Source of the DNA: a virus
Lineage: Duplodnaviria > Caudoviricetes
IMG/VR virus record: IMGVR_UViG_3300045747_000505
Direction: 5' to 3' (one strand)
DNA: 64,000 nt
Positions within the stretch are counted from its first letter, which is position 1. Every line of letters begins with the position of its first letter. This document shows, one piece after another, positions 52,644 to 57,490 of this stretch. Position numbers and translations under genes: made by a program. Below the pieces are notes generated by a model. It saw nothing but the letters and a program-made list of their open reading frames with translations. It was not told where the DNA came from and ran no database searches.

Positions 52644-53221
52644 AGCTTCTTGAAATCCGAGCCGTCGGCAACTCGCCGATCGACCTCTCCGACCCAGACA
52701 ACAGGCCTGGCGCCTACGAGCGTGAGGGTGCTGCACGCGACTCCTACGCGCAGAAGATCGCCAAGGGCTCAGCCGAAGCCGACAAGATGGCTGAAAAGCT
52801 CGGTGGCACGCTGAAGAAGCATCCGCCAAGCCAGTTCATTTCAGGCGACACGCCGTTCTGGACAATCTCTGGTCTCGACTTCGAAACGAAGGGTGGCAAG
52901 AAGGTTCGCTGCTCAATCGACCGTGAGCCTCATCACCGTCGTCAGGCGCTGTTCTTCCGCAACACCTTTCTGAAGCATCCGAAAGGCGTTCACAGCCACG
53001 ACAACGAGGCGAAGCGCACCATCGAAGCCCTTGAGCGTGAGATCAGCTCTGCTCATGAAGAAGCCTTCGGCAAGCGGGCGCTTGGCACCGACTTCCTCTA
53101 TGATTCGAACGACAAGGACTACACGCTCATCGGCCTCAGCGTTGGCATTCCGCTGATGGACGGCGTCAAGGGAGTTCAGTTCGTCAAGAAGGTCATCGCT
53201 CTCATCACGAAGCAGTTCTAA
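52640..53221 (+). CDS. Hypothetical protein
   Basis: ATGA-coupled; phage codon usage. Confidence 0.7.
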   Translation: MKLLEIRAVGNSPIDLSDPDNRPGAYEREGAARDSYAQKIAKGSAEADKMAEKLGGTLKKHPPSQFISGDTPFWTISGLDFETKGGKKVRCSIDREPHHRRQALFFRNTFLKHPKGVHSHDNEAKRTIEALEREISSAHEEAFGKRALGTDFLYDSNDKDYTLIGLSVGIPLMDGVKGVQFVKKVIALITKQF

Positions 53222-53895
53222 TGCCAACCGCCCAGCTTCGCTCGCTGGCTGCCAAGTCAGACAAGACTCTTGGTGACCTCGAGCGCTACTGGGCAGACGC
53301 CAAGGTTGAAGCTCATCACAAGTTCAAGAAGAAGGACAAGCACTTCTGGGCCTACGTCGTCGGTATCGTCAAGCGCCGCGCTGGGCTGAGCGAAGAGGAC
53401 ATCAGCTTCAAGACCTATCTGCTCCTCATCGAGGACGACAAGGCGCACGGCAAGGCTCTCGAGCGAACAGGCTTCTGGGGCAAGGCTGGTGCGGGTTGTA
53501 TCATTTTAGCTCGGGACACGGGAAGAATCTGCCTGCCGAAGCGAAGCAAGGACGTGGAGCAACCACACACTTGGGGAACTTGGGGTGGCGCTATCGACGG
53601 AAGAGAGGCGCCTAAGGCCGCTGCAGAGCGCGAGGTCCGTGAGGAAGCTGGATATACAGGCAAGCTCGAAATCGTTCCCCTGTACGTTTATAAGCATCCC
53701 AGTGGCTTCACCTACCACAACTTCCTGGCCATCGTGGACAAGGAGTTCGAGCCAGAGCTGAACTGGGAAACGTCGACCTACCGTTGGTGCTCGCCAACGA
53801 AGCTGCCGTCGCCGCTGCACTTCGGTCTGAAGGGTCTGCTTGCCGACGCCGCAAGCTGGCAGAAGATCAAAGACGCTCAACCTAAAAAGACGTAG
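53221..53895 (+). CDS. Nudix hydrolase with N-terminal helical domain
   Basis: Nudix box GGAIDGREAPKAAAEREVREEAG. Confidence 0.88.
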   Translation: MPTAQLRSLAAKSDKTLGDLERYWADAKVEAHHKFKKKDKHFWAYVVGIVKRRAGLSEEDISFKTYLLLIEDDKAHGKALERTGFWGKAGAGCIILARDTGRICLPKRSKDVEQPHTWGTWGGAIDGREAPKAAAEREVREEAGYTGKLEIVPLYVYKHPSGFTYHNFLAIVDKEFEPELNWETSTYRWCSPTKLPSPLHFGLKGLLADAASWQKIKDAQPKKT

Positions 53896-53924
53896 CCTGA
53901 AGACTGAGACATAGAGTAAAATAC

Positions 53925-54256
53925 AGACATGGGTGCTACAGCCATTCTGTAGTGATTGTTGTAATTCGGAGCAAGTTGAAGGATTCTGGACGCGGGTTCG
54001 ATTCCCGCCAGGTCCACCACAAAACACATACCGCCGGCTGTAGAATTCGGCAACACCTTAGGGACGATCCACGTGGTGTGTGTTTTGTAATGGGCCTGAC
54101 CTGGTCTCGACAGGGTTACGGAGATGCGCACACGCAACACGAGAGTCGACCGACGTAATCGGCGAAAACACGCTAAGTGCAAACGAAGCAAACTTCCGTC
54201 TGGCTGCTTAATACCCAGCTCACGGTGAGGCTAACCACCTTATAAAGCAACGGTGA
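53925..54256 (+). ncRNA. ssrA: Circularly permuted (two-piece) tmRNA; tag ANEANFRLAA*
   Basis: 3' acceptor piece GCGGGTTCGATTCCCGC-CAGGTCC-A-CCA ends at 54019 and precedes the 5' piece GGGCCTGAC-CTGGTCTCGAC at 54092; G3.U70 pair; tag frame 54179-54211; outer ends approximate. Confidence 0.9.
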
Positions 54257-54282
54257 GGACAGGACACTTCGGTGTCCTGTCC
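54257..54282 (+). terminator. Hairpin after tmRNA coding piece
   Basis: GGACAGGACAC-TTCG-GTGTCCTGTCC. Confidence 0.75.
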
Positions 54283-54816: not shown

Positions 54817-54891
54817 GCGTCGTTAGCTCAATGGTAGAGTACGGGCCTCTAAAACCCAGGGTTATCGGTTCGATCCCGATACGACGCACCA
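54817..54891 (+). tRNA. tRNA with CUA anticodon (amber suppressor), tRNA-Lys-like body
   Basis: Acceptor GCGTCGT/ACGACGC-A-CCA, D-arm GCTC/GAGT, loop CT-CTA-AA (CTA 54849-54851), T-arm ATCGG-TTCGATC-CCGAT; anticodon stem has only 3 Watson-Crick pairs. Confidence 0.85.
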
Positions 54892-55617: not shown

Positions 55618-55764
55618 ACCTAAACAAATCGATGTACAAGTCCTAAGGACAGTGTACAATAGGAACTGTTGAGAAGCTCACAGTGGTGAGCAGTATCTTA
55701 GATAGTTGGCATAGACCGGGACCCCGTTGTCGCCCAGCCACAAACGACGACATCAACTAGTGAG

Positions 55765-56151
55765 ATGATCATGTAGATCCGCACTTCCAAAACCTACCTC
55801 TACGCAATCACACGCCGCGATCTCCCACTCGCGCAACAGGCTGTTCAAGCTGGCCACGCCGCCATTGAGCACGCTTACCAACATGGTCGTCCGCACGATC
55901 ATCATCCGTCGTACATCAAGCTGACGACGCGAGACAAGGCCGCTCTTCTCGAGCTTCAGGCCACGCTTGCCACGCACGGCATTCAAACCGCAGAATTTCA
56001 CGAGCCATACAAAGCTTGGGGCCTCACCGCAATCGCCTGTCTTCTCGGCGAGGAACAACGCTGTCTGTTACGACAGTTACAGCTTTGGACCACGCAGAAT
56101 GCTCAGGTTCGTGATACAATGGACACATCAACCACTCGGAGTTTCTCATGA
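55765..56151 (+). CDS. Peptidyl-tRNA hydrolase type 2 (Pth2)-like protein with in-frame TAG at codon 4 (missed by the ORF track)
   Basis: ATG ATC ATG TAG ATC CGC...; KTYLYAITRRDLPLAQQAVQAGHAAIE...FHEPY...GLTAIA; TGA overlaps the next ATG. Confidence 0.75.
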
Positions 56152-57397: not shown

Positions 57398-57490
57398 ATG
57401 ATCTAGGTAAACGCAGTCGCTCGTGGTCCTCCGAGGTTGAATGACACATTCACGGTTCATTCACTTCACATTTCAAGGATCACATCATGA
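57398..57490 (+). other. Amber-interrupted leader ORF (ATG ATC TAG ... TGA) coupled to the next gene
   Basis: AAGGA RBS at 57387; read-through frame has no other stop until TGA 57488-57490, which overlaps ATG 57487. Confidence 0.55.

Follow-up and report, generated by a model that had tools for sequence, protein, structure and literature searches.

The DNA analysed here, called the window throughout, is a 64-kb stretch with a G+C content of about 59%, and nearly all of its genes lie on the + strand. A NUDIX gene (53221-53895, +) is located upstream of a circularly permuted, two-piece tmRNA (53884-54282, +), which was detected by ARAGORN and by the Rfam models beta_tmRNA (140.6 bits) and tmRNA_permuted (125.3 bits). 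The TAG of the NUDIX gene is followed by C, a poor context for suppression, and read-through there would add only four residues (53221-53907). The tmRNA encodes the tag peptide ANEANFRLAA and is the upstream member of a translation module. A tRNA with the amber-suppressor anticodon CUA (54817-54891, +) was found further downstream by ARAGORN and by the Rfam tRNA model (60.1 bits). This tRNA is 75 nt in length and carries an encoded CCA end and A73 as its discriminator; its anticodon stem is weak, with two C-A mismatches. When the tRNA was compared with E. coli genomes by blastn, nothing matched. Between the tRNA and the gene described below lie three small ORFs and a non-coding gap of 147 nt. 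Within this gap, a consensus scan matched a sigma-70-like promoter, TGTACA-16-TACAAT (55633-55660, +), at 9 of 12 positions, which is weak evidence for a promoter.

The gene of interest is preceded by the Shine-Dalgarno (SD)-like sequence GTGAG (55760-55764, +). This is followed by ATG (55765-55767), ATC (55768-55770), a second ATG (55771-55773), and an in-frame TAG (55774-55776), which we refer to as the gate; the base after the TAG is A. From there, 124 sense codons are open (55777-56148), and the frame ends with TGA (56149-56151, +). The original prediction had read the locus as ATG-ATC-ATG-TAG in front of an intact Pth2-like frame, and our reading of the sequence confirmed this. It had also stated that no ATG, GTG, or TTG lies between the TAG and the conserved core. 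The first such in-frame codon was found 115 codons past the TAG; thus, the stretch from the TAG to the core offers no canonical start. The suppressor tRNA, which had been placed 0.9 kb away, is located 880 nt upstream of the ATG at 55771. The predicted RNA fold around the gate (55700-55840) was no better than that of shuffled sequences (z 0.28). An antisense ORF of 101 codons and high GC3 (55753-56058, −) overlaps the Pth2-like gene and was favoured by a crude GC3-based gene caller. Homology backs the + frame only, so this antisense ORF most likely results from the G+C content.

Another SD-led leader, ATG-ATC-TAG, was found at 57398-57406, ahead of a gene for a 128-aa protein at 57487. If this leader were read through, 31 codons would be translated up to a TGA that overlaps the ATG of the 128-aa gene. 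No leader of this type was present upstream of the homologues of the 128-aa gene in seven relatives, and the leader may be specific to the window or a chance match. The motif TAGTTGGCA is common to the two leaders of the window. It was considered as a promoter and rejected, as its 19 copies in the window lie mostly within genes and on either strand.

The sequence of the locus recurs in pond and wetland metagenomes. Contigs X2 and X3, from two further samples, were identical to the window across the TAG, and strain X4, about 94% alike, kept ATG-TAG unchanged at 55771-55776. Thus, the TAG in the window is not a sequencing error. In X4, the T at 55766 is replaced by C, so that the first ATG becomes ACG. 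Furthermore, the spacing GTGAG-N6-ATG agrees with that of a relative (L020) for the second ATG only. These two observations indicate that the true start is probably the ATG at 55771. The original prediction had counted the in-frame TAG as codon 4; the TAG itself stood, and its number is probably 2. A megablast search of the locus against a phage collection returned no near relative.

We examined the relationship of the encoded protein to known families. The window protein matched Pfam PTH2 with 15.9 bits (E = 0.015), below the gathering cut-off of 23, and had no match in NCBIfam. Its matches in PHROGs were families of unknown function. In a large protein collection, 94 homologues of 85-139 aa were found with E-values down to 2e-41, none of which was informatively named. 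An AlphaFold2 model of the window protein, built on an alignment of 56 homologues, had a pLDDT of 90.9. The top 13 PDB matches of this model in a Foldseek search were Pth2/Bit1 chains and related structural-genomics proteins of unknown function (E 1e-5 to 3e-4), with TM-scores of 0.50-0.69 when normalised by model length. The best fold matches were Bit1/PTRH2 (1q7s), archaeal Pth2, and PTRHD1 (TM 0.65-0.73), and those in Swiss-Prot were all Pth2 or PTRHD1. A profile search of PDB sequences gave nothing meaningful, and the link to Pth2 came from the fold search only. Within the family, Pfam PTH2 was matched by 11 of 59 members at E ≤ 0.01, the best at 3.7e-8, and the homologue in phage XacN1 exceeded the gathering score with 25.3 bits.

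The window protein shares the alpha/beta fold with Pth2 (PF01981; Bit1 1q7s, PH1539 1wn2, AF2095 3erj) and PTRHD1 at a Foldseek probability of 1.0, and the Q-x-x-H-A helix motif of Pth2 is present. It differs from Pth2 in its identity of only 12-23%, in its score under the Pfam cut-off, and in a shorter loop before the Q-x-x-H-A helix with Q-Q in place of G-K; when the motif was read by eye, the Lys of the Pth2 G-K loop corresponded to Gln. Residues Q24, H27, F74, E76, and T84 are invariant. The original prediction had noted EPY where EPD is usual and had doubted catalysis on this account. The window protein does contain FHEPY. The residue after E-P is D, Y, or S depending on the clade, and Y is nearly invariant within the clade of the window, which weakens that doubt. 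On the basis of the model, the predicted protein is a divergent member of the Pth2 fold with putative enzyme activity. The first ten residues of the model had a pLDDT of 88 and were assigned as coil by DSSP.

We next describe how far the early stop is conserved. At 31 IMG/VR loci, many of them on contigs of 330-370 kb, the homologue almost always followed an SD, an ATG, zero to five codons, and a TAG. Further scans beyond these loci brought the total to 129, of which 104 were distinct. Distinct gated contexts numbered 83. In each, a start codon and zero to seven more codons preceded a stop at the equivalent place, before the Y-L-Y/R-x-D core; the stop was TAG in 81 and TGA in 2. In the window, no alternative start is available to the conserved ORF. 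The start codon was ATG in 74, GTG in 6, and TTG in 3 contexts, and an SD-like motif was present in 74 of the 83. Counted with its start codon, the leader had one codon in 18 contexts, two in 10, three in 41, four in 11, six in 2, and eight in 1. The last codon of the leader varied (TCG 17, ATG 11, CAC 9, CTG 8, and others), as did the codon after the stop (ATT, AAC, ATC, GTT, AAT, ACC, and others). The base immediately after the stop was A in 68 contexts and G in 15 and was never a pyrimidine, compared with 51% purine after ordinary stops. In context studies in E. coli by Bossi and by Miller and Albertini, a 3' purine is said to favour amber suppression. Some homologues in the databases have Q at the gate position and are translatable only when TAG is read as Q.

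The gate was present across the deepest splits of the family tree, and the lineages that keep the stop are only 32-40% identical. A recent nonsense mutation, which had been offered as an alternative in the original prediction, was rejected on this ground. Judged from these comparisons, the early stop is a conserved feature and not damage or a broken gene. About 12 members among the distinct loci are ungated, implying at least three to five losses, and a few others are ambiguous. Half of the ungated members still adjoin a tRNA-CUA; thus, the link between the gene and the tRNA does not strictly depend on the gate. This suggests that the link between the protein and the tRNA goes deeper than the gate.

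Several loci depart from this simple division. L025, L027, and L028 had been scored as ungated, which was incomplete. In these loci and in L137 and L138, a gated fragment covers about 40 N-terminal residues of the gene at 82% identity to the window, and about 550 nt further lies a full-length ungated copy that is 56% identical and starts with MKNYLY. The leader upstream of this ungated copy is conserved in L141, L145, and L146. Another kind of control may have replaced the gate in loci of the L025/L027/L028 type. L088, a metagenomic relative from the clade of Serratia phage BF, seems to be frameshifted and not ungated: a 10-codon leader ends in TAG (4960-5060 of L088) one base out of frame with the body of the gene. 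This offset reflects a genuine frameshift or else an indel introduced by assembly.

To relate the stop to the tRNAs, we used the 44 TAG loci that are flanked on each side by 2.5 kb or more. ARAGORN found one or two tRNA-CUA in 37 of these 44 loci and tRNA-UCA in none; the tRNA-CUA of L017 was missed by ARAGORN and recovered with Rfam and by eye. All 70 suppressor tRNAs near the gene shared its strand; 57 were upstream, and the median distance was about 1 kb. Both relatives with a TGA gate carry tRNA-UCA: L024 has two, and L030 has one 3.8 kb downstream. In the complete 342.6-kb genome of L024, no CUA tRNA was present among the ARAGORN tRNAs in the regions holding all 44 Rfam tRNA matches. Thus, the stop and the neighbouring anticodon match in 37 of 44 TAG loci and in both TGA loci; the sample contained no TAA gate with a tRNA-UUA. 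A single evolutionary event may underlie both TGA cases, as the family tree does not resolve them. The original prediction had tied the TAG to the CUA tRNA of the phage and had proposed looking for the TAG in relatives with this tRNA; the stop was kept there, and the anticodon changed with it in the TGA relatives.

Two suppressor tRNAs were present in 9 of the 46 well-flanked gated loci. Some of these pairs differ in length and in the discriminator base (A73 or G73), and their members might insert different amino acids. Global alignment of 79 distinct suppressor tRNAs with 195 canonical phage tRNAs revealed no clear parent. Of the 46 related gated loci with good flanks, 15 also contain a tmRNA. 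Among four complete relatives examined, three (L076, L077, and L078; genomes G007, G005, and G008) have a gene for a short release-factor-like protein of the RF1 type that contains GGQ and a P-x-T-like motif, and the fourth has an RF-1 domain match. The RF1-like proteins of L076, L077, and L078 have an in-frame TGA about 35 codons in, whether the suppressors are CUA or UCA. We take this TGA to be at the place where E. coli RF1 has Trp.

The gated gene is also found in cultured phages. In Serratia phage BF (L032, 3983-4321), it begins with ATG-ACG-CAC-TAG, lacks an annotation, and is followed 3.6 kb downstream by a tRNA-Sup. In the Erwinia and Yersinia relatives of phage BF, the matching region likewise carries no annotation. 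In Acinetobacter phage ME3 (L066, 2992-3327), the gene begins with ATG-ACT-TAG, 0.4 kb downstream of a tRNA-CUA, and its CDS is annotated from an internal GTG. Standard annotation therefore misses or truncates the gene in BF, its Erwinia and Yersinia relatives, and ME3. The 595-kb record LR756511 also carries a gated gene.

In phages XacN1, Xoo-sp13, and RAS14, the Pth2 domain forms the C-terminal end of a fusion protein of about 280 aa. The SD-led start of this fusion, ATG-AAG-TAG or ATG-AAG-AAG-TAG, lies 190 codons upstream of the Pth2 domain, and the annotated starts fall 5-23 codons past the stop. The domain before Pth2 (about 175 aa; XacN1 ORF364, L033 3443-4303; L034; L068) has a faint HD/HDIG match (E 0.008-0.02), and the early TAG precedes the entire fusion of the HD-like and Pth2 domains. 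XacN1 has two CUA suppressors; its authors read through all 18 amber stops of the genome, and no suppressor target was identified (PMC5852040).

The conserved stop, the purine 3' to it, and its co-variation with the anticodon together speak for reading of the stop by the neighbouring tRNA. Based on these patterns, we consider it likely that the phage suppressor tRNA gates the Pth2-fold protein, and that the two form a lock-and-key translation cassette of a giant (jumbo) phage. In the window, ribosomes would initiate at the ATG at 55771 and reach UAG immediately. The tRNA(CUA), encoded on the same strand, would have to out-compete release factor 1 for the 124-residue protein to be made. Read-through would thus take place at the gate, and the amount of the Pth2-fold protein would both report and depend on the activity of the suppressor tRNA. 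The gate probably lies in the first codons because a disordered tail accepts any residue and no truncated protein is made.

We weighed this reading against translation that bypasses the stop. The leader could be a separate mini-ORF, and ribosomes could re-initiate, or initiate non-canonically, at the codon following the stop (the ATC at 55777 in the window) and translate the hydrolase frame independently of the suppressor. Bacteria rarely start at ATT, with infC as a known case. The codon following the stop was ATT or ATC in 40 of the 83 contexts and GTN in 15, and in XacN1 and L030 a canonical start lies one to five codons past the stop, as re-initiation would have it. However, this codon was AAC, AAT, ACC, ACA, AGC, or AAA, none of them an initiator, in 28 of the 83, and the ATC at 55777, named as a possible start in the original prediction, was rejected for this reason. 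The SD is spaced for the upstream ATG, and re-initiation does not predict that the type of stop should change with the neighbouring anticodon. We consider this explanation improbable.

Slightly less probable to us is read-through without regulation, in which a stop is nearly neutral in a tolerant N-terminal tail once the phage owns a suppressor, and simply persists. The stop does sit in a variable, disordered tail, and the relatives that have lost it kept the gene. However, a neutral site should interchange with sense codons, whereas this stop has been kept across highly diverged lineages. The 3' purine is invariant although the next codon varies, and the stop switches in step with the tRNA. 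These features favour gating by the tRNA over neutral persistence.

The original prediction had favoured a minigene like that of lambda bar, in which the unsuppressed leader makes peptidyl-tRNA and the suppressed locus makes the hydrolase that clears it. Lambda bar (AUG-AUA-stop) resembles the present loci in being a very short, SD-led phage ORF with a tie to the biology of peptidyl-tRNA hydrolase. The leaders are within the size range of minigenes, and TCG was the commonest last codon (17 of 83). However, the 18 leaders of one codon, probably including that of the window, are bare start-stops. A start-stop carries fMet-tRNA only, so no peptidyl-tRNA would be formed. Bar sequesters a scarce tRNA as peptidyl-tRNA, whereas here the leaders range from one to eight codons, their last codon is not conserved with no rare one kept, many are start-stops, and the frame continues into a conserved gene. 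A minigene of two or three codons that traps a scarce tRNA does not describe these leaders, and we hold this account to be very improbable. It did not survive the comparison, and gating by the suppressor tRNA remains our preferred reading.

The least probable explanation is that TAG is a sense codon throughout the genome, as in code 15, and the gate merely one such codon: a suppressor tRNA is present, of 65 + strand genes predicted in the window by a crude caller, only about 2 end in TAG, and some gene callers rendered homologues with TAG as Q, but window frames of 944, 948, and 1586 codons are open without any stop and so without TAG, a screen of all TAGs in the 64-kb window found no other gene interrupted likewise, the NUDIX gene seems to terminate at TAG, backed up by a TGA three codons later, and the TGA-gated relative keeps TGA as its main stop, so that neither many internal copies of the stop nor loss of the terminator was observed.

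In code-15 phages, TAG is read as Gln via phage suppressor tRNAs (Borges et al., bioRxiv 10.1101/2021.08.26.457843; Peters et al., PMC9523058). As in the present loci, a phage tRNA that reads a stop unlocks genes with an in-frame stop, and a regulatory role has been proposed. Those phages differ in that dozens to hundreds of genes, mostly late ones, have TAG at many internal sites and the code is in effect a different one. Here, the standard code is kept, and one stop, at codons 2-9, interrupts a single small gene adjacent to the tRNA.

The strength of suppression was considered separately. Avoidance of the stop might have pointed to strong suppression, but it was dropped as support: the window uses TAG rarely, yet the TGA-suppressor relative does not avoid TGA. 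In that relative (L024), 67 of 125 genes still end in TGA. TGA is thus still the main terminator beside an opal suppressor, which indicates that the suppressors are weak, brief, or tolerated.

The purpose of the gate may be one of two. In the first, which we slightly prefer, the gate would match dose: a tRNA-ester hydrolase whose amount scales with read-through would clear the by-products of suppression beside the tmRNA. Alternatively, the enzyme might trim the acylated form of the suppressor itself and so provide negative feedback. A more elaborate version, which we think unlikely, is a self-limiting controller of suppression. The Pth2-fold protein would act on the acylated or peptidyl form of the suppressor, or, jointly with the HD-like domain of the XacN1 type, on the 3' ends of tRNAs, so that the suppressor drives its own brake, and the RF1-like factor and the tmRNA would help to set the level of read-through.

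Two other systems invite comparison. In prfB, which encodes RF2, an in-frame UGA at codon 26 likewise places an early stop in a gene of termination or quality control, where it senses decoding at that stop. However, prfB uses a +1 frameshift and senses its own product, whereas here a dedicated tRNA would read through in the same frame, and feedback by the product is only a hypothesis for the phage cassette. Synthetic suppressor-tRNA gates and feed-forward loops (PMC7969014, PMC13276491) also use an early amber codon to make the output need a co-expressed suppressor. Those gates were engineered, whereas the phage cassette appears natural and widely conserved. Full-text literature searches found no published description of a suppressor tRNA paired with a gated Pth2-like gene.

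Suppressor tRNAs are common in large phages that otherwise keep the standard code, and what these tRNAs target has been an open question. The cassette supplies a conserved and specific client gene for these tRNAs, and XacN1 itself has one. The question of suppressor targets is now directly testable in cultured phage-host pairs. If the proposed gating is true, the cassette would be a natural example of the tRNA-gated logic built by synthetic biologists, and the gate could act as a built-in reporter of the strength of suppression during infection.
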